Notes: generated by a model not told the origin, from the letters alone. A stretch of DNA of 13,406 nt from Candidatus Hodarchaeota archaeon (GCA_029856365.1 JAHQWW010000105.1:1-13406), one strand, 5' to 3'. Shown: positions 2,189 to 13,406, counted from the first letter of the stretch. Numbers and translations: made by a program.

Positions 2189-4147
2189 ATGATAGATAAG
2201 GAAGAAAATATAGAAAAAACTGTCAATGAGAAAAAAACAAATCGCATATATTTAGTTGCAGGAATACTTTGCGTCCTTTTTTTTGTTGCTTCTGCTTACG
2301 GGGTTCAACGTACCATTCTTTCTACTTTCGCTGAAGAACAACTTGAATTTTCAAAATGGTTTGAAAACTGGGCATGGATATCTATTGCCTTTACTTTAAT
2401 GGGTTTTGGGTTGTTTAAAGCCTTAGCAGGCCTTTTTACAAGTGCATATACTCAGAAAATCGGAACCAAAATTATGATTCTTCTAGGAGTGGGGTGTTTT
2501 GTTATAGGAGGCATTCCTCTTCTACTTTCAGAGGGAGATCCTTTATTTTTAGGCATTGGAAATTCAATTCTTGGTGTTGGTGAAGGACTGCTTTATGCAA
2601 GTGCAATGACCTACCTTTCTGATGTAAGTACTGCCTCCAGACGTGCTCAATGGATGGGTGTCATGGAACTGGCAGTTTATGGAGGGTATTCTTTTGGTGC
2701 AATAGTGGCTGGTTGGATAACTATGCTTACAAACAAGTCTGGTGCAGCCTTCATCTTCTCATCTATTGTCTCTCTCTTCGGTTTAATAATTACAATTACT
2801 GCTGTGAAGTCAAGTGTCAAATCTGATACCCAAGTAGTGTTAGAAAAACTTCGTACCCCAATTGAAGGAGCTAAAACTGTCCCACGGTTTAGAAATCTCA
2901 TAATTAGGCCAACAGTAATTATTACCTGTTTAAACGGCCACATTAGTAAAATGGTGGATAGTATCATTGTATTATTCCTCCCTCTATTACTTAGCAGTAC
3001 ATTATATGGTTATGGTCTTTCAATTGAAGAAACAGGATTAATCACAGGAGTTTTTACATTGTCTTGGGCTATAATAATGCCTCTAGCAGGGAATATTAGT
3101 GATAAGATTGGTCGAAAAGCACCTACATTTCTTGGTCTAATTGTAGAAGGTCTAGCTTTATTCGGTTTACAAGCGGGAATTTCCCCATTCCCAGTTTTAT
3201 TCATCCTTTCAGCATTAGGAGGAGTTGGTGTGGGCCTTTATTATCCTATATTACCATCGATTTCAGTTGATATCTCTCCTGAAGGTCAAAAACCTAAAAT
3301 TATTGGCTTTTATCGTGCTGTGAAGGATTTCGGTTACTTTACTGGTCCTTTAATGGCTGGATTTGTCGCCCAACTTTGGTTTGATTCAAATCCAGAACGA
3401 TTAGACCAGATTTTACATGTACCTCTACATACAGCAGGTTTATTGTTATTGATTGGAGCATTTAGTTCTGTTGTAGTCCGAGAGACACACCCAGGTTGGG
3501 TTCAATTCCAGACATGTTTAAAACATGCTCAACTAGTAGAAGCATCTGTAATTCAGGGAACCAAGGGATTATTAGTATATCTCGAACAAGAAGCAATAGA
3601 AAAATCAAATTTTCAGAAAAGACTGGTAAGATACTCACAACAAGCAAAAGAATTAGAAGTGCAAGCTGATCAACAATTAGAGGAAATTGCAGTACAAACT
3701 TACAAAAGTTTGGTTAAAACACCTGATGCTGGGAATTTCTTACGAATTGCAAGACGCTTAGATCGTGTTGCTGGATTAACCTTAGGAGCATTATTTCGGA
3801 TTCAAACTATTCCTATTGAAGAAGTACCCCCCTTGATTCAAGAGAAACTACATGATGCCGCAATTGCGTTACGTGGGTTGGTTAGAACAACTGTAGACAT
3901 TCTGCAAGTGCTTGATATCAAGTTAGACGCTGTTTCTGGGGTTTATCGTATAGTTCGTGATCGTGAGTCAGATCTTGATTTGTTGTATCAAATAATGAAT
4001 CAACATCTTTTCATTGCTTCTCGTGGAATGCATTATGGGACTTGGTATGCAATTAAAGATGTCATTAACATAATCGAGCAAGCTGCTGACTCTGCTGAAG
4101 ATGCAGCAGAGGTTATTAATTTTCTTGCCATAAAATATAAAACGTAA
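2189..4147 (+). CDS. MFS transporter fused to a C-terminal DUF47/PhoU-like (phosphate transport regulator) domain, 652 aa
   Basis: Residues ~20-432 hold about 12 hydrophobic helices, with MFS motif A GNISDKIGRK in the second half and a degenerate copy SAYTQKIGTK in the first. Residues ~437-652 are soluble and helical with DUF47-type motifs KELEVQAD, RIARRLDRVA, RDRESDLD and IEQAADSAEDAAEVI. Confidence 0.85.
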   Translation: MIDKEENIEKTVNEKKTNRIYLVAGILCVLFFVASAYGVQRTILSTFAEEQLEFSKWFENWAWISIAFTLMGFGLFKALAGLFTSAYTQKIGTKIMILLGVGCFVIGGIPLLLSEGDPLFLGIGNSILGVGEGLLYASAMTYLSDVSTASRRAQWMGVMELAVYGGYSFGAIVAGWITMLTNKSGAAFIFSSIVSLFGLIITITAVKSSVKSDTQVVLEKLRTPIEGAKTVPRFRNLIIRPTVIITCLNGHISKMVDSIIVLFLPLLLSSTLYGYGLSIEETGLITGVFTLSWAIIMPLAGNISDKIGRKAPTFLGLIVEGLALFGLQAGISPFPVLFILSALGGVGVGLYYPILPSISVDISPEGQKPKIIGFYRAVKDFGYFTGPLMAGFVAQLWFDSNPERLDQILHVPLHTAGLLLLIGAFSSVVVRETHPGWVQFQTCLKHAQLVEASVIQGTKGLLVYLEQEAIEKSNFQKRLVRYSQQAKELEVQADQQLEEIAVQTYKSLVKTPDAGNFLRIARRLDRVAGLTLGALFRIQTIPIEEVPPLIQEKLHDAAIALRGLVRTTVDILQVLDIKLDAVSGVYRIVRDRESDLDLLYQIMNQHLFIASRGMHYGTWYAIKDVINIIEQAADSAEDAAEVINFLAIKYKT

Positions 4148-4199: not shown

Positions 4200-6800
4200 G
4201 TGAACACATCGATTGACTTTGTCCTCTTAGATGCCGATTACGAGATTTATGTGCGTGATGGAATTAAGAAACCGCTACTTCGTCTCTGGGGCCGATCTAA
4301 TAGCAAACGAGTTGAAATACGAGTCAGTGGTTTCCTTCCATACTTTTACGCGGAAGCTTCAGAAGAAAAAATAAGGAAAATTCTGAACAAACGAGGAGAA
4401 CAGACAAAAGACTGGTTAATTGAAACTTTTAGATGTAAAAAACGCACATTTTTTGGTGGATCATCACGAATTGTAACCCAATTGATTGGAAACATCCCTT
4501 TTCTTGTTCCTGAAATCAAGCAACTTCTTCAACAAGCTGGAATCGAGGTTCATGAAGCAGATATTCCTTTTACACGTCGATTCTTGATTGATAGGAATGT
4601 ACGGGCTTTACATCCTGTCACAGTGATAGGGACAATAATTAAGCAAGAGAATGATATACTTATCGCAGAAGCTCCATTTAAAAATATCTCACAAAAAACA
4701 GAAGCTTCTAGTGATTATCAACCCCTCCTTCTCGCTTTTGATATTGAAGTTGATCATAAACAAGGTGAAACAATACACGAATTATTACTTGTGAAGAAAA
4801 GAAGAATTACAGCGATCTCAATGGCCTGGGGTACAGTGGAAACTGAAAACCCAGACTCGAAGGTTATTATTCTAGAAAATGATAGCGATATTGCAGAAAA
4901 TGCACTATTGATTAAATTTTTAGAGACTGTTAAACAAACCAAGCCTGATGTTTTACTCTCATTCAATGGAACTTTTTTCGACATCCCTTATTTGATAGCT
5001 CGTCTCTCAAGATATGGAAAGTCATTAGGAGAACTAGCACTTTTCACAGGACTTCAAAAGGATATTATTAAATCAAAAATTCCTGTGGAAAGTTACAAAT
5101 TGAAGGGGCGAGCTGTAATAGATTTATTGCCAAAAACATGGGGAATTCATCCTATTAGTGGGCAAAAAACACTCGACTCGGTGTCAGAAGAAGTACTGGG
5201 TGAGTCTAAAGTCAAACTTGAAAAGAGTATTGGAGAATTATGGAGAGCTGGGGTACTTGGATCTAAAGAAGATGCTCAATTATTCCGAGAGTATTCACTG
5301 AAAGATGCTATTCTTACTTTTAAGTTAGCTTCTGAGTTAGGAGTGTCAAATTCTATTGAATTATGTCGTCTAACTGGGTATCCCATACCTGAAGGGATTC
5401 TTTCGACGAGTCGTAATATTGGTGAGCTCGAATTAATGAGGATTCTTCATTCGAAGGACATATTTATACCGTCGAAACCATCTCCTACAGAATTAAAAGC
5501 TAGGAAAGAATTTAGTCGAAAATACCCCCATCTTGGTGGGTGGGTAATAGACCCTTCTGTTGATGAAGCCACGTTTGTTGGAATATTCGATTTCCGATCA
5601 TTATATCCTAATATTGTACGAACACACAATATCTCTGGGGAAACTTTAATTGCCAATTCAGAAGGATATCCTCCAGAGCAGCGATTTTTAAAAGAGCCTC
5701 GTGGTGCCCTCGCGATTTTAATGGATAGAATTTTAGAACAACGGTATCAAACACAAGAGATATTAACAAAAATAAAGGAAAATAGGGCACAGGATCCGCA
5801 AAAACAGACAGATCTTCTTGAAAAGAGACAAATATCATTAAAATTAATGGCCAACTCTCTTTTAGGTGCATCAAACTATCCCCGAGGAAGATTTTACCAC
5901 CATATAATAGCAAATAGTATTACAGCCATCGCGCGGGAGTTATTAAGTGAAAAACTAGAGAATTGGACTAATGAGTACTCAGAAAGGCATCCATATGATG
6001 TATTATTAAGATATGGTGACACAGATTCCATTTTTGTTGAATTTATATTACCAAATCTCAGTTTGACAGATTTCCAGCAAGAATTGCCATTAAAAGCGAG
6101 AACCCGAAAAGAAAAGCAGCTCTTAGTTGCAATTAACGATTATCGTTCATTCTTAGCCCAGAAATTACCAGAATTTCTTGAATTACAGCTTGAGGATATA
6201 ACATCACGGATTATTTTGAAGAAAGGTCGAAAAAAAGCCTATGCTTATGTGTCTTTATTGACTAATAATATCATTATTAGAGGTTTTGAAGCTGTAAGAT
6301 CAGATTGGTCACCTCTAGCAAGAAAAGCACAACGAGAGCTTCTTGAGGCACTTTTAACTGATTTGTCAGATGAACGAAGAGAACATGCGCGCAGAGTGAT
6401 TTTTAATATTAGTCGAGCTATTCTACGTAATCCAGTTTCTCAACTGGTTAAAGAGTTAACCATTCGGGGTCCGCTGCGACGTTCTCCAGCTAAATATAGG
6501 TCAAAAACTCCAGCTGTTGGTGCTTTTTTACATTATTGTGAACAAAAGAATTTGGATCCAGAGCTAGAATGGAAAAAATGGGATGGTTTCCCTTATATTA
6601 TCGCAAAAGGTTCATCTAATGAGTCTCAATATCTTAGAGCTTATCATCCTGATGTTTTTCAACAAAATAAGAAAGAAATTGACCGATTACATTATGTGAG
6701 AGAAATCCTCGGAGCTAGTAAACGTTTTGGGATAAATATAAATGAAACTGAGGCGCAGCAAGGAGCTCTTATTATCCCATTAACCGTTTTCTTAAAGTAA
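4200..6800 (+). CDS. polB: Family B DNA polymerase, archaeal type (PolB3-like), 866 aa
   Basis: GTG start with GGTG at 4187-4190. Exonuclease motifs: ExoI FDIE, ExoII FNGTFFDIPYL, ExoIII YSLKDA. Polymerase motifs: A DFRSLYPNI, B KLMANSLLG, C YGDTDS, then KKAY and RGFEAVRSDW. Uracil-pocket-like segments: LDADY, LPYFY, VPEI, EADIPF. Confidence 0.95.
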   Translation: MNTSIDFVLLDADYEIYVRDGIKKPLLRLWGRSNSKRVEIRVSGFLPYFYAEASEEKIRKILNKRGEQTKDWLIETFRCKKRTFFGGSSRIVTQLIGNIPFLVPEIKQLLQQAGIEVHEADIPFTRRFLIDRNVRALHPVTVIGTIIKQENDILIAEAPFKNISQKTEASSDYQPLLLAFDIEVDHKQGETIHELLLVKKRRITAISMAWGTVETENPDSKVIILENDSDIAENALLIKFLETVKQTKPDVLLSFNGTFFDIPYLIARLSRYGKSLGELALFTGLQKDIIKSKIPVESYKLKGRAVIDLLPKTWGIHPISGQKTLDSVSEEVLGESKVKLEKSIGELWRAGVLGSKEDAQLFREYSLKDAILTFKLASELGVSNSIELCRLTGYPIPEGILSTSRNIGELELMRILHSKDIFIPSKPSPTELKARKEFSRKYPHLGGWVIDPSVDEATFVGIFDFRSLYPNIVRTHNISGETLIANSEGYPPEQRFLKEPRGALAILMDRILEQRYQTQEILTKIKENRAQDPQKQTDLLEKRQISLKLMANSLLGASNYPRGRFYHHIIANSITAIARELLSEKLENWTNEYSERHPYDVLLRYGDTDSIFVEFILPNLSLTDFQQELPLKARTRKEKQLLVAINDYRSFLAQKLPEFLELQLEDITSRIILKKGRKKAYAYVSLLTNNIIIRGFEAVRSDWSPLARKAQRELLEALLTDLSDERREHARRVIFNISRAILRNPVSQLVKELTIRGPLRRSPAKYRSKTPAVGAFLHYCEQKNLDPELEWKKWDGFPYIIAKGSSNESQYLRAYHPDVFQQNKKEIDRLHYVREILGASKRFGININETEAQQGALIIPLTVFLK

Positions 6801-6992: not shown

Positions 6993-9900
6993 ATGTGTGG
7001 TAAAACGATGAAAAAAAAGATTTTAAGTATTTTATTGCTAATACTCCTTAATCTTAATGTATTTTTCACTGTTGGTTTTTCTCAGTCAGTTGACAAGGCA
7101 GTACTGGATAATAATACAGAACTATCTCAAGAGAGATTCTCTAAAGATCTTTTTGATGTGGAACGGGAAATTAAAGCCATAGAAGATCCAATATATCCTT
7201 CTTCTCCGTCAAATTTTCAACTAGGTCCATTAAATACAAATAATTTCTCAGCTGCTCCTTCTCTTTCAATAAAAGATCAAGAGCGATCCATGATTATCAA
7301 TATTGATTTAGAGAAACAGGTGGTCTCTCCTGGAACACCCCTCAACTATGTTATTCAAGTGACCCAAGGACTCGAACCTGTGCGTTATGAGACTTTACTC
7401 TTAGAAATTATTAAAGGGGAATACTGGGGTTGGTACTTTTATTGGTTAGAAGATTATACTCCATATGAAAACCGCACAGTTTGGAGTGACCTGATTACAA
7501 CAGATATTGAAGGTGAGTACCAAGGAAAATTTACTCCTCCTTCCTCTGGCCGTTATTCCATTCTGGTTCATTCATCATCTACAGGTTACGTTCAAGAAAT
7601 TAGATCTTTTACTGTGGCTAATATTGCTTTATTTTGGCGTGTTTCGAGTGAATATGTTACTGGAGAAAATCATCAATCTGTTGCATATGTCTTAAATACA
7701 AATGATTTCTCCCCTGTTCCAAATGCGCAAATAGAATTATCTGGGATTACATATAATTATGATTATGATAGTAGTAAGTATGAGATTCAATCTAAACAGT
7801 TATTTTCAGGAGTGTCAAATGACCTAGGAATCGTTGAAATAGATTTTGTACCACTTAATAGCATTTCAGAGAATTATAACTTTCTAGCTAATCTCAGTGC
7901 TAGTTATAATGGCGAAACAATCTATATATCACGTGATATTTACCGAGGGGGGTATTACTGGGGATGGGATGGTTACAGTGAATATCAAAAATATGATTTC
8001 ATTGTAACAACCGATAAACCAATTTATTCCCCAGGTGAAACCATCCAAACTCGAATTCTTCTTTGGGAAAATGATTATCTAAAAGTAACTAAGGAACCTG
8101 CACAAACTTCCTTTATTCTGAAATTTCTATCTCCTTCTCAACACATTTTGCTTCATCGTCAAGTCACAACTAATTCCTATGGAGTTGCAACATATTCTTT
8201 CACGTTAGATACTGATAGTGAATTGGGAAGTTATTCCATTGTTACTCAAAAAGAAGATGTTGTTAGTTCTTTGCCAATCCGGGTTGATAAATATGAAAAA
8301 CCATCCTTTCGTGTTACACTAGGATTAGATCATGAATATGTTGCTCCAGGGGGAAAAGTCTCTGGCAATGTGACTGCAGAATACTACTTTGGAAAACCAG
8401 TCGCAAACAGTGAAGTTAAACTTACTATTGGAGATATAGATGTTCTTACTGGCATAACTGATATAGATGGATTTTGGGAATTTGAATACAGATTACCTAG
8501 TAAATCAACTCTCGAAGGTATGAGTGCAATTCCAATTAATGTAACAGTGATTGACACAGTGGGTCGAGAGGTTACAAGTTCCTCAGCAGTTCAGATTACA
8601 GATGAGGTTTATGTATGGGCTTATATCAATCCATGGTTTCCAAAAATAGGCGAAAATGTAACAGTCTACTTTGGTGCGTATCAATATTCGGAACGGGATT
8701 GGTCGTGGTGGAATTGGCGAGCTTTGACGAATGTAAAGGTGGAAGTTAAGTTATACGGGGTGTATTCTGATACTGATTTCCAATTAATTACCACTCTGAA
8801 ATCTAAAACAGATCTTAACGGCCAAGGTCAAATAGAAATTGATCTACCTCCTAAAATTCTAACTTCCTTTAACAGATTCAAGGGAGTCGTAGAAGTGAAC
8901 GCTGGCGATGGCAGAAAAGGATCATCAACATTTTACTTCACTGTTGATAGAAATTCAGTTGAAGTTAATCTTGGTACTAGTACCTATAAAGCAGGAGATA
9001 AGATTGAATTCGAGGTATTCATTCAAAACGTGGTTTCAAACACTCCCATTGATGGTAGCTTACAATTCCGAATTTTTGATTCTGATTATGACTTAATAGG
9101 AGAAGATATTCAGGATATTTCATCCCAAGGTGGTATTGTTAAATTTCAGCTGTCCTCCTTCGCTCCAAATGGTAAATATGTCATTTATTGTTACTTAGAA
9201 ACAACATATGATAGTGAATATGGTTCATGGACTTACTATAGGTTTTCAAAATCAGTTGAATTTCATGTTGGGGCTACTTACGAAATTTCTCTCACCGCTG
9301 ATAAGACCCATTATTCTTTAGCAGATAGTATTTCCATTTCTGGGCAGATTCAAGGTCAAACTCATGCTTCAGTGATGGTTCAATTCGTTAAAAAAGGAAT
9401 AGTAGTCACTGAGTATATTGATGTTTCTTCTACAACAATTTTTAATGTTAAAATCCAGAATATTCAATTCCTTGCCCCTCGCTTCTGGGTATATTCATTT
9501 GCTATCTTGGACGATGGTACCATTCTTGAAGCTTCCTTAAGCTTAGAGATCGACACCACACTTTTAGTGGAAGTGAGTTCCGATAAATCTGTGTACGAAC
9601 CAGGAGACACGGCCAAGATCAGTATCGAGATTCTTGATTCTAAAAACAAGGCTCTTCCTGCTGTTCTGGTTGTTTCGTTCATTGATAGTTCAGTATTTGG
9701 AGTTCAAGCAGACCCTGAAGCAGAACAAGAATATTTCAATGAACAAGAATACTGGCCTTCGGTATGGACAGTTGTTTCATGGAAGAGTCAGCAAAGATAC
9801 TGGTGGTTCTGGTGGTACGACATCTATCCTATCAGAAGGGGGGGATTCTTCGGCTATTATATGGAAGATGTAGCCTATAATCAAGAGTATGCTGAAATGG

Positions 9901-12900
9901 ATGAGGGCCAACCAGTTCCTGGATCTAATACACGGAAAGATAGCGCTGATGAGGCATCTACTCAAACAAAGCGAGAAATTCGGGATAACTTACCTGAAAA
10001 TGCTTATTGGAGTCCTTTAGTAATTGTGGAAGAGGGATATTTTGAGATGGATTTGCTCTTACCTGATACCATTGGTGAATGGACTGTACGAGTGGTAGCT
10101 ACTACGCAATCAGGACAAGGAATTTTGCATAAATACTCCTTTAAAACATTTCTTCCCTTTTTCGTTGAGATCAATAAAGAACCTTTTGTTTTACAGGATG
10201 ATGTGTTTATTATCAAAGGGATTGTATATAATTACCTTGACGAGCAAAATGACGTTGCCATCACTCTTGAGATTGAAACTGAAGTTGGAATACTTGTATT
10301 AGGGCGAAATATCCAAACTTTAAGGCTTCCAAGTGGATTCTTAGGATCTATCGGTTGGGCATGTTTAGCCCAAGAAGTTGGTTTCTTTAATATCACACTT
10401 TATGGTAATACCTTGGTAGAGGGGACTAATTATCAAGATGCCATCCGAAAACGTTTAGAGGTCGTTCCTAATGGAGTTACATCTGAAGTTAAGGCTAGTG
10501 GTTTTGTTTTTAGCGATCCAAGCTTTTCATATATCCGTTATTCAGAAACAGTCCAACAATCTGAGTTTCTTGAGCTTTCACTTGGCTTAGGATCAATAGC
10601 CCTCACATCATGGGAGAGATTGGTAAAATATCCTTATGGATGTACAGAACAAACGATTTCTTGTCTTATTCCTGATGCTTTAGTCTTGAAATACCTTGAT
10701 GAAACAGAGCAACTCACTAACAATACAGAAGAAACAATTCGAGATATGATTGTATCAGGATTATCTCGTCTTTATAGTCAACAACACAATGATGGAGGTT
10801 GGGGATGGTGGTACGATGATTCCTCCCGTCTATATATGACCAGTCTAGTCCTTTATGGCTTAGGAATGGTAAATAAAAGTGGATTCTATATTGACCCCAA
10901 TGTAGTTACGAATGCTATTAACATGATAAGTGTTCATCAGAATTCCGATGGTTCTTGGACACCTGATTCTTGGAGAGGAGTAGATCAAACATCATTCACC
11001 GCTTTTGTTCTAAGATCAATTTTACAGTGGAATAATTTGTATGAGTCTAGTTCTATATCAAAAGCACTGAGCTATATTACCAATGCTTGGAATGACGACA
11101 ATAAACGTTCTACATACTTAGCTAGTTTATATTTGGATAGTGTTCCTGGATCAGGATTTGGTCAATCTTCTTTCAAAACAACTCTCATCACTTATTTGAC
11201 GAATGAAGCTCAATTTTCTTCTGATGGTTATTATTATTGGACTTATACCACAGATGGGCAATACTGGCGAGCACTAGGAGGTGATGTTGAAATAACAGCT
11301 TTAGCTTTGAAGGCATTAGTTGAAAATGATCCCGCTGCTTTAATGCCAATCATTCGTTCAGCAGTTCAATGGTTGTTACAGCGTCAATCTTGGTATGGGT
11401 GGGGTAATACAGCTGATACTGCTGCAGCAATTTCCGCGATTGTGGCTCTTAGTCAAAGTGAAGTAAGCTCTGATGAGGATGCAGAAGTCACTCTAATTGT
11501 CAATGACAATATAATTGGGAGCTATGATCTCTCAATTTCCTCTCAACCTACAATCTATCTAGATCTGGAACAATATTTTGTTATAGGTGAGAATTTCATT
11601 GAACTGGAGAAACAAGGGCTGGGTAATGTGAGTTACTACTTTTATGGAAACCAGATACTTCGAAGCTTGCCTTCTATTGAACTCCCAACTGAAATAAGCA
11701 GTGTTATTGGTCAACAAGTCACCCTTCCTTTAACATTAACACCTACTTCCCCACAGATTTTTGCTTACAATTTATCAGTTATTCCACTTGATGGGGATCT
11801 CACACCAATGATTAATCTTCCTCAGTCAATTAACCAGCTTACTCAGCAAACAATAGTCAAATTTAATTATACAACTCCCTCTCAAACAGGCACATATGAA
11901 ATTCTTGGATTTGAAATCTCTTATCAATTATCAAATTTGGATAAAACAGAGTTTTCGCCTGGAATCATAACTCGAAGATACGGTCCTGTTCAGCTTACGG
12001 TTTCTAACTCAGCTTCAGCTGTTATTTTAAACATTCCTTCACTTTCTGACCCCTCTTTGACAACTAATATTGAAAAACCAAGTATACAAATCAGGAGTTC
12101 AAATGGGCTTGAATTATCACGAAGTTATTCACAGATGAAAGGTTTTCAAAAAGGGGATCTTGTCTTTGTTACTTTAACTATCACTAATACGGAGCAGACT
12201 GAGAATTTTCTTATGGTAGAAGACTATATTCCAGTTGGTTTCGAGCTTGATAAAAGCACTATTAAACATCCAGCAGAAACTTATGAGATTACTACATCTG
12301 GAATAACTTTTTTCTTCCCTGAATTAAAAGCTGGAACCATAGAGGTTAGTTATGGGCTGATTGCAATGAATGTTCGACAGTCTCTTGTATCTCCCGCGAA
12401 ATTATCAAGTATGTATGATGAGTGGGAAGTTACTAGTTTACCAACAATCCTAGGAGATGCTCGCATTTCAATAAACTCCTCTACTGGTGCAGTGGTACAG
12501 GATCTCGAACTGCCTATACTTGAAAAAGTATCTGTCGAAGAAGTTTTACTCGCATCTAAAGGTGTGTTGGACGTAGAAGTAGTAGCTTTAGATAACTGGG
12601 GAATTGCGAGTGTTAGAATCTTTATTAAACAATCTTCATGGAATGTATTTGAATGTTCAAAAGAAACCGATGAATGGAGAACCATAGCAACAGGACTCAG
12701 TGATGGTGACAGTCAAATTTACCTAGAAATAATTGATTTTGCTGGAAATGTCTTGGTTAGTGATCCATTTTCCAAATACATTGAAATTGAAGATCTTTTT
12801 GTTCCCGAAAAGATTCTACCCGTCTTAGGACTAATTAGTGTTGCATTGGTCACAGGAATAGCAGCAGGAGTCGCGTCTGGGATGTACCTAAGAAAGAAGC

Positions 12901-12908
12901 GCAGCTAA
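6993..12908 (+). CDS. Alpha-2-macroglobulin/complement-family thioester-containing protein; secreted, C-terminal transmembrane anchor, 1971 aa (true start may be ATG 7008)
   Basis: Signal peptide MKKKILSILLLILLNLNVFFTVGFS. MG-domain signatures TDKPIYSPGE, KYEKPSFRV, AEYYFGKPV, SDKSVYEPGD. Post-bait motifs IRDNLPENAYW, LPDTIGEW, PFFVEI. Thioester motif YPYGCTEQ (GCTEQ at 10638-10652). TED motifs QHNDGGWGWW, QNSDGSW, DVEITALAL, WLLQRQ...NTADT. Last MG domain GDLV...VEDYIPVGFE...SMY. Terminal TM helix followed by RKKRS. Confidence 0.95.
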   Translation: MCGKTMKKKILSILLLILLNLNVFFTVGFSQSVDKAVLDNNTELSQERFSKDLFDVEREIKAIEDPIYPSSPSNFQLGPLNTNNFSAAPSLSIKDQERSMIINIDLEKQVVSPGTPLNYVIQVTQGLEPVRYETLLLEIIKGEYWGWYFYWLEDYTPYENRTVWSDLITTDIEGEYQGKFTPPSSGRYSILVHSSSTGYVQEIRSFTVANIALFWRVSSEYVTGENHQSVAYVLNTNDFSPVPNAQIELSGITYNYDYDSSKYEIQSKQLFSGVSNDLGIVEIDFVPLNSISENYNFLANLSASYNGETIYISRDIYRGGYYWGWDGYSEYQKYDFIVTTDKPIYSPGETIQTRILLWENDYLKVTKEPAQTSFILKFLSPSQHILLHRQVTTNSYGVATYSFTLDTDSELGSYSIVTQKEDVVSSLPIRVDKYEKPSFRVTLGLDHEYVAPGGKVSGNVTAEYYFGKPVANSEVKLTIGDIDVLTGITDIDGFWEFEYRLPSKSTLEGMSAIPINVTVIDTVGREVTSSSAVQITDEVYVWAYINPWFPKIGENVTVYFGAYQYSERDWSWWNWRALTNVKVEVKLYGVYSDTDFQLITTLKSKTDLNGQGQIEIDLPPKILTSFNRFKGVVEVNAGDGRKGSSTFYFTVDRNSVEVNLGTSTYKAGDKIEFEVFIQNVVSNTPIDGSLQFRIFDSDYDLIGEDIQDISSQGGIVKFQLSSFAPNGKYVIYCYLETTYDSEYGSWTYYRFSKSVEFHVGATYEISLTADKTHYSLADSISISGQIQGQTHASVMVQFVKKGIVVTEYIDVSSTTIFNVKIQNIQFLAPRFWVYSFAILDDGTILEASLSLEIDTTLLVEVSSDKSVYEPGDTAKISIEILDSKNKALPAVLVVSFIDSSVFGVQADPEAEQEYFNEQEYWPSVWTVVSWKSQQRYWWFWWYDIYPIRRGGFFGYYMEDVAYNQEYAEMDEGQPVPGSNTRKDSADEASTQTKREIRDNLPENAYWSPLVIVEEGYFEMDLLLPDTIGEWTVRVVATTQSGQGILHKYSFKTFLPFFVEINKEPFVLQDDVFIIKGIVYNYLDEQNDVAITLEIETEVGILVLGRNIQTLRLPSGFLGSIGWACLAQEVGFFNITLYGNTLVEGTNYQDAIRKRLEVVPNGVTSEVKASGFVFSDPSFSYIRYSETVQQSEFLELSLGLGSIALTSWERLVKYPYGCTEQTISCLIPDALVLKYLDETEQLTNNTEETIRDMIVSGLSRLYSQQHNDGGWGWWYDDSSRLYMTSLVLYGLGMVNKSGFYIDPNVVTNAINMISVHQNSDGSWTPDSWRGVDQTSFTAFVLRSILQWNNLYESSSISKALSYITNAWNDDNKRSTYLASLYLDSVPGSGFGQSSFKTTLITYLTNEAQFSSDGYYYWTYTTDGQYWRALGGDVEITALALKALVENDPAALMPIIRSAVQWLLQRQSWYGWGNTADTAAAISAIVALSQSEVSSDEDAEVTLIVNDNIIGSYDLSISSQPTIYLDLEQYFVIGENFIELEKQGLGNVSYYFYGNQILRSLPSIELPTEISSVIGQQVTLPLTLTPTSPQIFAYNLSVIPLDGDLTPMINLPQSINQLTQQTIVKFNYTTPSQTGTYEILGFEISYQLSNLDKTEFSPGIITRRYGPVQLTVSNSASAVILNIPSLSDPSLTTNIEKPSIQIRSSNGLELSRSYSQMKGFQKGDLVFVTLTITNTEQTENFLMVEDYIPVGFELDKSTIKHPAETYEITTSGITFFFPELKAGTIEVSYGLIAMNVRQSLVSPAKLSSMYDEWEVTSLPTILGDARISINSSTGAVVQDLELPILEKVSVEEVLLASKGVLDVEVVALDNWGIASVRIFIKQSSWNVFECSKETDEWRTIATGLSDGDSQIYLEIIDFAGNVLVSDPFSKYIEIEDLFVPEKILPVLGLISVALVTGIAAGVASGMYLRKKRS

Positions 12909-12936: not shown

Positions 12937-13406
12937 TTATCGCTCCTGTTCTGAAACAACAGACCGAATCTTTTTCAATTCAGTTAACATTTGTTTACGA
13001 AGAATAGCAATTCCTGTTGCGCGATCTTCTTCACGTTGTCCTTTAGGTTGAGATAAAGGGCTCGGAGAAGGTATTGAACTAGGTTTAGAAATTGATGGAA
13101 ACGAAATTTTTGGGATAGTTGGAGGTGTAATTTCACTTTTCGGGGATTCAATAGGTGCAGGAGTAGGAGAAGGTGCCGATGGAATTTCCTTTGGTTCGTC
13201 TGGCTTTTCAGGAAAGGAAAAACTAATTTTAGGACGGGTTATCGACTGTTCCGAGGGAATGGTTGGAGGTGAGGGTTTAGCATCAGGTGAAGGTTCTGTA
13301 ATTGGTGGTGTAGAAGGTTGTGGGGTAGTGGAGGGGGTTTTATGAATAATAGGACGTAGTGATGGAGTTTCAACAACTTCAACACTAGGAGTTGGCAATT
13401 CATCAG
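12937..13406 (-). CDS. C-terminal part of a Pro/Ser/Thr-rich disordered protein ending in an amphipathic helix (WH2-like); 5' end lies outside the window
   Basis: The frame stays open past the track's TTG at 13398 (…DELPTPSV…) to the window edge. About 120 aa of P/S/T/E/K low-complexity sequence is followed by EEDRATGIAILRKQMLTELKKIRSVVSEQER*. Confidence 0.8.
   Translation of the reverse strand, partial: DELPTPSVEVVETPSLRPIIHKTPSTTPQPSTPPITEPSPDAKPSPPTIPSEQSITRPKISFSFPEKPDEPKEIPSAPSPTPAPIESPKSEITPPTIPKISFPSISKPSSIPSPSPLSQPKGQREEDRATGIAILRKQMLTELKKIRSVVSEQER

Follow-up and report, generated by a model that had tools for sequence, protein, structure and literature searches.

The gene that we analysed encodes a type-I membrane protein of the alpha-2-macroglobulin (A2M)/thioester-protein (TEP) family, from a clade spread across Asgard archaea, and the reading that we favour for its product is that of a tethered, bait-triggered covalent protease trap. 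It lies at nucleotides 6993..12908 of the window (the whole stretch of 13,406 nucleotides that was analysed), on the plus strand like every feature given below, and its reading frame is open over 1971 aa; the assignment to an A2M/TEP-family surface protein is supported by the open frame, by the set of Pfam domains and by 39 orthologues of similar length (43-82% identity). The actual start is probably Met6 (nt 7008), because the profile match starts there, as do most orthologues; residue numbers here count from nt 6993, and a start at Met6 would shift them by 5. The GCxEQ motif, the signal peptide and the transmembrane (TM) helix with its basic tail are kept in all of the 39 orthologues having the relevant end, and about 20 more distant full-length Asgard relatives (31-38% identity) have the same length, motif, signal peptide and anchor.

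A sequence-only reading of this DNA had proposed a full A2M architecture, and all Pfam domains of the family indeed exceeded their curated cut-offs: MG2 (residues 336-421), A2M_BRD (766-902), A2M (1004-1092), TED_complement (1207-1484, E 4.9e-32) and bMG10 (1714-1809). After the signal peptide, a disordered and variable linker (residues 32-96, nt 7086..7280; pLDDT 23-31, top-residue frequency 0.39) leads to seven beta-sandwich MG-type domains (residues 97-934, nt 7281..9794), delimited with the N-half model (pLDDT 76.9), Foldseek and Pfam. The MG2 match corresponds to the third of them and A2M_BRD to the seventh (MG6), while Foldseek matched the N-half to ECAM, CD109, A2ML1, C4 and C5 at E 1e-26 to 1e-21. 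Beyond the bait region, MG7 (nt 9981..10280; the Pfam A2M match) opens with a conserved R-D-N-L-P-E-N and is the most conserved domain (top-residue frequency 0.76), and it is followed by a CUB domain (halves 1100-1198 and 1497-1557) split by the thioester domain (TED, 1207-1488), the whole spanning nt 10290..11663 according to the model, the structure alignment and Pfam. MG8 (nt 12108..12473; the Pfam bMG10 match) then comes after an additional beta domain defined from the model (residues 1561-1671, nt 11673..12005) and a variable linker (1675-1702). Two features that characterize the family are found here, namely an MG ring whose MG6 contains the bait-region domain (Pfam, model, Foldseek), and a helical TED with CxEQ, nested in CUB and followed by MG8 (Pfam, structure alignment).

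Two domains are lineage-specific and gave nothing significant in Pfam, and their Atlas scores (0.86-0.88) are to be taken as leads only. The additional beta domain separating CUB from MG8, which is restricted to this archaeal lineage, showed weak family hints, namely a BatD/DUF11-like Pfam match and Atlas clusters resembling MG10/A2M_recep (score 0.86). The C-terminal Ig-like beta-sandwich (residues 1842-1930, nt 12516..12782; model strands 883-971, pLDDT ~90), without any Pfam match and with an Atlas lead to Big_7/Big_13 (score 0.88), would form a stalk that separates MG8 from the membrane. At the equivalent positions P0099, a giant A2M of Thermoplasmata type (NCBI name 'alpha-2-macroglobulin family protein [Thermoplasmata archaeon]'), carries a DUF11 and a CARDB domain, respectively. 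Anaphylatoxin and C345C/netrin families were absent from the protein (Pfam scan, E <= 0.01), which places it with the A2M-type rather than the C3-type proteins, so that the label 'complement-like' initially given to it has to be abandoned.

The thioester motif G-C-T-E-Q, already reported as intact, was confirmed by position and alignment at residues 1216-1220 (nt 10638..10652) inside an invariant Y-P-Y-G-C-x-E-Q, and it did not vary in 34 orthologues nor in 44 sequences including the distant Asgard relatives; a thioester would be expected to form between Cys1217 and Gln1220. The pair Met1807-Tyr1808 of MG8 (nt 12411-12416) is likewise the same in each of the 44 aligned Asgard sequences; many of the bacterial-type A2M homologues found also have an 'MY' pair some 20 residues before their C-terminus, and the matching residues of Salmonella A2M, in work by Wong and Dessen from 2014, reportedly help to shield the thioester. 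The residue tuning thioester reactivity in CD109, a His, falls in an alignment gap, and no His or Asn of the Hodarchaeales protein was found to correspond to it. Flexible and variable, as in A2M-type inhibitors, a bait region (residues ~942-996, nt 9816..9980) takes the place of the anaphylatoxin in a protein for which Pfam gave no C345C: it is disordered (pLDDT ~25), 44-56 aa long among orthologues, and has a top-residue frequency of 0.40 vs. 0.57-0.76 in the folded domains. Together with two disordered linkers it belongs to the most weakly conserved parts of the protein, and its hypervariability could simply be that of an unconstrained loop.

Only two stretches of the protein are strongly hydrophobic (residues 9-31 and 1935-1964, hydropathy), in agreement with the signal peptide lacking a lipobox and the C-terminal TM helix with an RKKRS tail that had been proposed from the sequence. 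The former (residues 1-31, nt 6993..7085) consists of a K-rich n-region and the hydrophobic core 9-31, is helical at 5-24 in the model and is kept in full-length orthologues; the sole early cysteine, Cys2, is outside any lipobox context. The latter (nt 12813..12908) comprises a TM helix at ~1941-1964, modelled as helical over 1941-1968 and present in every orthologue with an intact C-terminus, and a cytoplasmic tail Y-L-R-K-K-R-S followed by the stop codon. This end is predicted to be a stop-transfer anchor and, together with the signal peptide, supports the outward-facing, C-terminally tethered topology suggested earlier. The genome encodes three archaeosortase-family proteins, and at least 12 of its other proteins reach the Heimdall-CTERM cut-off. 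The C-terminus of the A2M protein had no match to the Heimdall-CTERM/PGF-CTERM sorting signals at E <= 10 and the protein was absent among the 51 genome-wide matches at E <= 1; a role as archaeosortase substrate was rejected, the PGF-type tripartite C-terminal signal not being matched. A C-terminal 'IPxxPI' motif considered as a new sorting signal was likewise dropped, as the genome scan returned only eight loose and dissimilar cases. C-terminal TM anchors are common among archaeal A2Ms and among the secreted proteins of this genome. Concerning glycosylation, the 14 N-x-S/T sequons counted by the sequence-only reading are correct in number, but they equal what is expected by chance (15.8 ± 3.5 in 2000 shuffles), and sequon enrichment was therefore discarded as a sign of glycosylation; five sites recur in 29 or more of 34 orthologues.

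The AlphaFold model of the C-half (pLDDT 81.5, pTM 0.72) superposed as one body on native TEP1, A2M, A2ML1, C5 and C3 (VIA-align Z 32-33.5, rmsd 3.6-5.3 Å over ~600-657 residues), while activated forms fitted only at 13-25 Å, a native-like pose that is partly learned since AlphaFold has seen native TEP structures. MG7-CUB-TED-MG8 was the part aligned to native TEP1, A2M and C3; Z was 33.5 for TEP1 and 32 for native A2ML1.

According to the trap reading, the signal peptide would direct the export of ~1900 residues outside the cell, where the lone C-terminal helix and the basic cytoplasmic tail would keep the protein on the membrane, raised by the Ig-like stalk. At rest, the Cys1217-Gln1220 thioester would be hidden between TED and MG8. 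A foreign protease cutting the exposed hypervariable bait (~942-996) would provoke a rearrangement and the exposure of the thioester, which could then attack a nucleophile of the protease, most likely a lysine, leaving the enzyme covalently bound to the tethered monomer and sterically blocked. The triggering by bait cleavage and the targets are, like the formation of the thioester, what we infer, and the mode of action would be the same as in the monomeric conjugating inhibitors ECAM, CD109 and A2ML1. The likely benefit would be the shielding of the exposed membrane and surface proteins among protease-secreting microbes of marine sediments.

The same chemistry and the same outward tethered topology would also suit a covalent tagger or adhesin, whose thioester links the archaeal surface to nucleophilic groups of a partner cell, virus or substrate in the manner of opsonising TEPs or of the thioester adhesins of Gram-positive bacteria, bait cleavage being at most a trigger. 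The Asgard archaea brought into culture are close syntrophs of partner organisms, stalks like the C-terminal Ig-like one (with its leads to Big_7/Big_13 and CARDB) are frequent in adhesins, and the model is equally near TEP1, an opsoniser (Z 33.5). Nonetheless, a long disordered hypervariable bait at the A2M position is a hallmark of the protease-inhibitor members, Pfam revealed no lectin or receptor-type recognition domain, and the gene is single-copy and strongly conserved, unlike diversified recognition molecules. We regard a tagging or adhesive function as possible, though unlikely. Quite improbable appears to be a structural surface or envelope protein that kept the A2M fold and left the thioester chemistry unused, as might be thought of a very large product rich in beta-sandwich domains, with five conserved sequons and anchored like many surface proteins here (157 ORFs of this genome have a C-terminal TM helix plus basic tail). 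Against it, Y-P-Y-G-C-x-E-Q, the Met-Tyr of MG8 and many TED residues are invariant at an overall identity of only 27-35%, which is hard to account for without use of the thioester, and bacterial members that abandoned the function, e.g., those of YfaS type, also lost the motif.

Among known systems, the protein belongs to an already recorded archaeal branch of the A2M family. Large, archaea-specific A2M homologues have been described that combine MG/Ig domains with a TED whose CxEQ is intact and, in most cases, a signal peptide (Makarova et al., 2021; PMC8416519), and the phyletic table of that paper tallies 27 such proteins in 24 genomes, two of them in Heimdallarchaeota LC_3 (now Hodarchaeales LC3). 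Its text treats Halobacteria and Methanomicrobia, the main text makes no mention of Asgard proteins, and no occurrence of 'transmembrane' in that main text refers to the A2M homologues. The features given there for archaeal A2Ms (archaeal genome, TED with CxEQ, MG/Ig domains, signal peptide) are all found in the Hodarchaeales protein, whereas the neighbourhoods described in that text (arCOG14565, Ig proteins, peptide transporters) are absent around its gene. Among the papers searched, no relevant one joining Asgard archaea or Hodarchaeales with macroglobulin or thioester-containing proteins was found. The Asgard clade was monophyletic (support 100), its neighbouring branches were archaeal and among its nearest relatives in both trees were Thermoplasmata-type A2Ms, sister to it in FastTree (support 90) and forming one group with it and with P0100/P0114 in IQ-TREE (SH-aLRT 95). 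These relatives share the C-terminal module (DUF11-like extra domain, bMG10, Ig-type domain, TM helix and basic tail), but they are longer (2400-2800 aa), contain additional domains and have only ~28-30% identity to the Hodarchaeales protein over MG7-CUB-TED. The novelty initially attributed to the gene is therefore largely lost, as it falls within an archaeal A2M group in which this C-terminal TM anchor is common, and as archaeal CxEQ homologues, including the two of Hodarchaeales LC_3, had been tallied in the phyletic table cited above.

The resemblance to CD109 suggested at the outset holds for topology, the C-terminus retaining both proteins on the outer face of the membrane, but not for kinship, since CD109 and A2M fall beside two bacterial proteins, apart from the Asgard clade. 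CD109 and A2ML1 are monomeric and of A2M type with bait and thioester, as is predicted for the Hodarchaeales protein (sequence matches of 118 and 105 bits, vs. 121 bits for human A2M). However, the anchor is GPI in CD109 and a TM helix here, and in the animal proteins MG8 is of the receptor-binding type (PF07677), disulfides are numerous and extra C-terminal domains are lacking; the Hodarchaeales protein neither belongs to the animal TEP clade nor has a GPI signal. E. coli ECAM/YfhM and Salmonella A2M, prokaryotic, membrane-tethered, monomeric thioester A2Ms as this protein is predicted to be, have like it extra MG domains at the N-terminus and a last domain of bMG10 type with Met-Tyr. Their N-terminal lipid anchor, periplasmic location and adjacent pbpC nevertheless set them apart from a protein having neither lipobox cysteine nor pbpC neighbour, and matches to 4ZIQ and 4U48 (31-40 bits) were confined to part of the TED.

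To our knowledge, eukaryotic TEPs are confined to animals. That the Asgard anchored thioester proteins and animal TEPs descend from a specific shared ancestor, which would place the root of thioester surface defence in archaea and make the Asgard protein an innate-immunity tagger, is in our opinion very improbable. Archaeal and animal TEPs do form one well-supported subfamily separate from the sampled bacterial A2Ms, and a forced Asgard plus animal clade was not rejected (AU p = 0.107); however, in both trees the animal TEPs (CD109, A2M) stood with two bacterial proteins apart from the Asgard clade, in a thin animal sampling lacking C3 and insect TEPs, where the CD109-seeded search gave almost only vertebrate CD109. 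The finding alone has no bearing on the origin of complement.

The archaeal, possibly Asgard, origin proposed for this DNA could be narrowed to Hodarchaeales, because the named orthologues are Hodarchaeales, Heimdallarchaeota or Promethearchaeota, because the same synteny is found inside a 4.9-Mb single-contig genome, and because the genome has at least 12 Heimdall-CTERM proteins, a signal for which no protein of 14 control genomes reached the cut-off. The gene is single-copy in this genome and has an orthologue in 19 of the 21 genomes of the genus, which indicates that it is under purifying selection. Directly upstream and on the same strand lies a family-B DNA polymerase (nt 4200..6800; Pfam DNA_pol_B and exonuclease domain), a position kept in all eight loci of the genus; we regard it as context and not as a partner, and this conserved neighbour says nothing about function. 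The other genes of the window encode an MFS transporter, a multi-TM protein, an amidohydrolase and a proline-rich protein; as stated in the sequence-only reading, no pbpC is adjacent, and no transglycosylase or transpeptidase gene occurs in the window either, nor was a protease or other partner gene linked to the A2M gene. The public sequencing runs containing the stretch were only DNA runs (marine sediment, seawater, mangrove), with no RNA run among them. Bacterial contamination of the bin, or a recent bacterial transfer, could be suspected of a window that is an entire 13.4-kb contig from a MAG 84% complete with 4% contamination, and of an MG8 matching the 'bacterial' Pfam model bMG10, but it is effectively refuted by the recurrence of the gene with its neighbours (PolB, MFS, multi-TM) in 8/8 genus loci, including 4.9 Mb single-contig genomes, by close homologues all named Asgard, and by the monophyly of the Asgard clade among archaeal tree neighbours.

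A conserved clade across Asgard archaea hence keeps the full predicted machinery of a thioester trap at the cell surface. The protein can be expressed and is a concrete candidate with which an archaeal A2M could be tested biochemically for the first time, and such a test would offer a first view of how the membrane of wall-less Asgard cells is defended against proteases.

The window's single very long plus-strand ORF (6993-12908) encodes an alpha-2-macroglobulin (A2M)/TEP-family protein of 1971 aa. A scripted check of the translation placed the thioester motif GCTEQ at residues 1216-1220 and found only two strongly hydrophobic stretches (residues 9-31 and 1935-1964), a C-terminal end of Y-L-R-K-K-R-S and six cysteines, none of them in a lipobox context; on all these points the sequence-only reading was exactly borne out. 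Its count of 14 N-x-S/T sequons was also correct, but composition alone predicts 15.8 +/- 3.5 (2000 shuffles), so the number is no evidence of glycosylation. Among 34 orthologues, N300 and N1133 are conserved in all, N516 in 33, N1243 in 30 and N1545 in 29. The Pfam models MG2 (residues 336-421), A2M_BRD (766-902), A2M (1004-1092), TED_complement (1207-1484, E 4.9e-32) and bMG10 (1714-1809) all passed their curated cut-offs, upholding the proposed A2M architecture, and neither anaphylatoxin nor C345C domains appeared in the Pfam list. In most orthologues the protein begins at the residue matching Met6, and the match to the family profile sets in at nt 7008, so the true start is probably five codons downstream of the annotated ATG (window 6993-7007 adds the residues M-C-G-K-T); the longer form also occurs in one orthologue (P0010).

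From an alignment of 44 sequences, the N half (pLDDT 76.9, pTM 0.68) and the C half (pLDDT 81.5, pTM 0.72) were modelled separately with AlphaFold. The predicted chain opens with a signal helix and a disordered linker (residues 32-96), followed by seven MG-type sandwiches of which the last is the bait-region domain (97-934), a disordered bait (about 942-996), MG7, a CUB split by the helical thioester domain (TED), an extra beta domain (1561-1671), a variable linker, MG8 (the bMG10 match), a further Ig-like sandwich (1842-1930) and a TM helix (1941-1968). Foldseek matched the N half to ECAM, CD109, A2ML1, C4 and C5 (E 1e-26 to 1e-21). The C half superposed as one rigid body on native TEP1, A2M, A2ML1, C5 and C3 (Z 32-33.5, rmsd 3.6-5.3 Å, about 600-657 residues), whereas activated forms (C3b, induced A2M, active CD109) fitted it only at 13-25 Å, indicating that the predicted state is the thioester-shielded one, with the reservation that structures of this kind were in AlphaFold's training data.

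Across the 34 orthologues, mean top-residue frequency was 0.57-0.76 in the folded domains and 0.40 in the bait, which varied between 44 and 56 aa and contained no conserved residue. Invariant were Y-P-Y-G-C-x-E-Q, many TED residues and the MG8 pair Met1807-Tyr1808, and the same held after adding Asgard relatives at only 27-35% identity. Among the bacterial-type A2M homologues listed, many have a similar 'MY' pair about 20 residues before their C-terminal end, beyond which the Asgard proteins run some 160 residues further (Ig-like domain and TM helix). In Salmonella A2M, the residues matching this pair reportedly help to lock the thioester (Wong and Dessen, 2014).

The export signal and tether, the variable bait, the thioester motif, which is invariant and covered by MG8, the native-like pose and the lack of complement domains together make it fairly probable that the protein is a tethered, bait-triggered covalent protease trap guarding the exposed cell surface, a combination of features matching that of the monomeric conjugating A2M-type inhibitors (ECAM, CD109, A2ML1). 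The export signal and membrane tether would place it on the cell surface, where the exposed and variable bait, lying in the A2M position, would act as protease trigger; MG8 would cover the thioester motif in the native-like arrangement, and the thioester would covalently trap the protease, protecting the surface. The main rival, a covalent tagger or adhesin, would exploit the same thioester chemistry and seems unlikely. A purely structural role is hard to reconcile with a thioester apparatus that does not vary, and is very improbable.

The TM helix and basic tail were present in every orthologue with its C-terminus, in about 20 full-length but distant relatives (the cytoplasmic tail is longer in some of these) and in neighbouring-clade members (1500-2800 aa), including one named Thermoplasmata A2M-family protein with a C-terminal module in common (DUF11-like domain, bMG10, CARDB, TM helix). 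Such a helix and tail is a common ending in the window's genome, with 157 cases among ORFs 200 aa or longer, 30 of them PGF-like. The topology signals of the proposed outward tether are thus genuine, though nothing unusual for a surface protein in archaea; their distinctiveness did not stand, since the anchor, judging from these relatives, is common to the archaeal A2M branch. A PGF-type Heimdall-CTERM signal was rejected as the anchor, the A2M C-terminus not matching that of the genome.

The window is an entire contig (C132) of a 4.24 Mb genome (204 contigs, 84% complete, 4% contamination). The 39 close relatives (43-82% identity, mostly 1940-1990 aa) carry the NCBI organism names Hodarchaeales, Hodarchaeota, Heimdallarchaeota or Promethearchaeota archaeon. 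In a search across 399 genomes of the phylum, the gene was found in 19 of the 21 genomes of the genus, nearly always as one intact frame and including a 4.9-Mb single-contig genome; it was missing from all 31 genomes of another family of the class, while distant full-length copies (about 1000-1100 bits) occurred in two families of another class (8/14 and 10/135 genomes). Gene order is kept in the genus: multi-TM protein, MFS transporter, PolB, A2M and a convergent proline-rich protein. The family-B DNA polymerase (window 4200-6800, +), whose exonuclease and YGDTDS motifs are intact, lies 192 bp upstream of A2M here and directly upstream on the same strand in 8/8 genus loci (the window and L107-L113), even where identity between the A2M proteins is only about 48%; nothing suggests that the two are functionally linked. 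Three archaeosortase-family proteins are encoded in the genome as well, along with no fewer than 12 proteins carrying a PGF-E-type Heimdall-CTERM ending (examples of the system at C6:2577-2651, C117:38992-39066 and C111:954-1244, on other contigs), a signal that reached its cut-off in 0/14 control genomes. Genus-wide presence, synteny and this content exclude bacterial contamination for practical purposes, and the suspected Asgard origin is confirmed.

Among the neighbours, the transporter (Pfam MFS_1; window 2189-4147, +) bears an unusual C-terminal fusion to a PhoU_div/DUF47-type domain (residues 484-648, E 2.9e-06), conserved in the genus (gene family F2 of the locus comparison). The 327-aa multi-TM protein (1001-1984, +) and the proline/serine/threonine-rich one (12937-13404, -; about 250 aa in relatives, here cut by the contig end) match no Pfam family and are both conserved in the genus. 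In all seven loci from distant lineages in other Asgard families (L115-L121), a 154-202-aa protein with a winged helix (ArsR/TrmB-like, weak Pfam) and two C-terminal TM helices is encoded upstream of A2M on the same strand (e.g., L119:6273-6785), immediately adjoining it in six, with a 240-aa opposite-strand ORF between in L120; the trap may thus have a membrane-bound regulator coupled to it. Its homologue in the window's genome (C150:44690-45115, 43-50% identity) lies away from A2M.

The best PDB sequence matches were human A2M (121 bits), CD109 (118) and A2ML1 (105), then TEP1 and C4/C5/C3, with E. coli and Salmonella A2M at only 31-40 bits. Trees of MG7-CUB-TED (FastTree, 166 rows; IQ-TREE LG+C20 PMSF, 64 rows) agreed on a monophyletic Asgard TM-anchored clade (support 100), joined by Thermoplasmata-type giants and two further proteins (P0100/P0114; support 95), within a subfamily (support 100) that also holds Nanoarchaeia-type and Freyarchaeota-type proteins and animal TEPs and stands apart from the sampled bacterial A2Ms (Acidobacteriota, Ignavibacteriota, Chloroflexota, others). 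In both, the animal clade (CD109, A2M-like) grouped with two metagenomic proteins (support 98), whose contigs are bacterial, judging from their genes for an ECF sigma factor, an outer-membrane efflux protein and a lytic transglycosylase. A constrained Asgard+animal clade, a group named after the tree was seen, was 25.7 log-likelihood units worse and not rejected (AU p = 0.107), and the trees, thinly sampled for animals (neither C3 nor an insect TEP), gave no positive evidence of a special Asgard-animal kinship. P0046 (L122:7375-12827), one of these two bacterial proteins closest to the animal TEPs, has a weak N-terminal zf-HC2 anti-sigma-like segment (E 0.017, below cut-off), and its gene directly follows one for an ECF sigma factor, a hint that A2M and a transmembrane signalling module are fused here.

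Our literature search found no paper that deals with the Asgard A2M clade or with the anchor or additional domains of its members. Archaea-specific A2M homologues with intact CxEQ and signal peptides are on record (Makarova et al., 2021; PMC8416519); the supplementary phyletic table of that paper counts 27 of them across 24 genomes and assigns two to Heimdallarchaeota LC_3, now classed Hodarchaeales LC3. In NCBI the orthologues already go by 'MG2 domain-containing' or 'alpha-2-macroglobulin family' protein. The novelty claimed for an archaeal A2M is therefore much weakened; overall, what had been observed in the sequence was confirmed and its interpretation supported in part only. The protein is a well-conserved member of the archaeal thioester macroglobulins, an already recorded group, and its value lies mainly in being a ready target for their first biochemical test.
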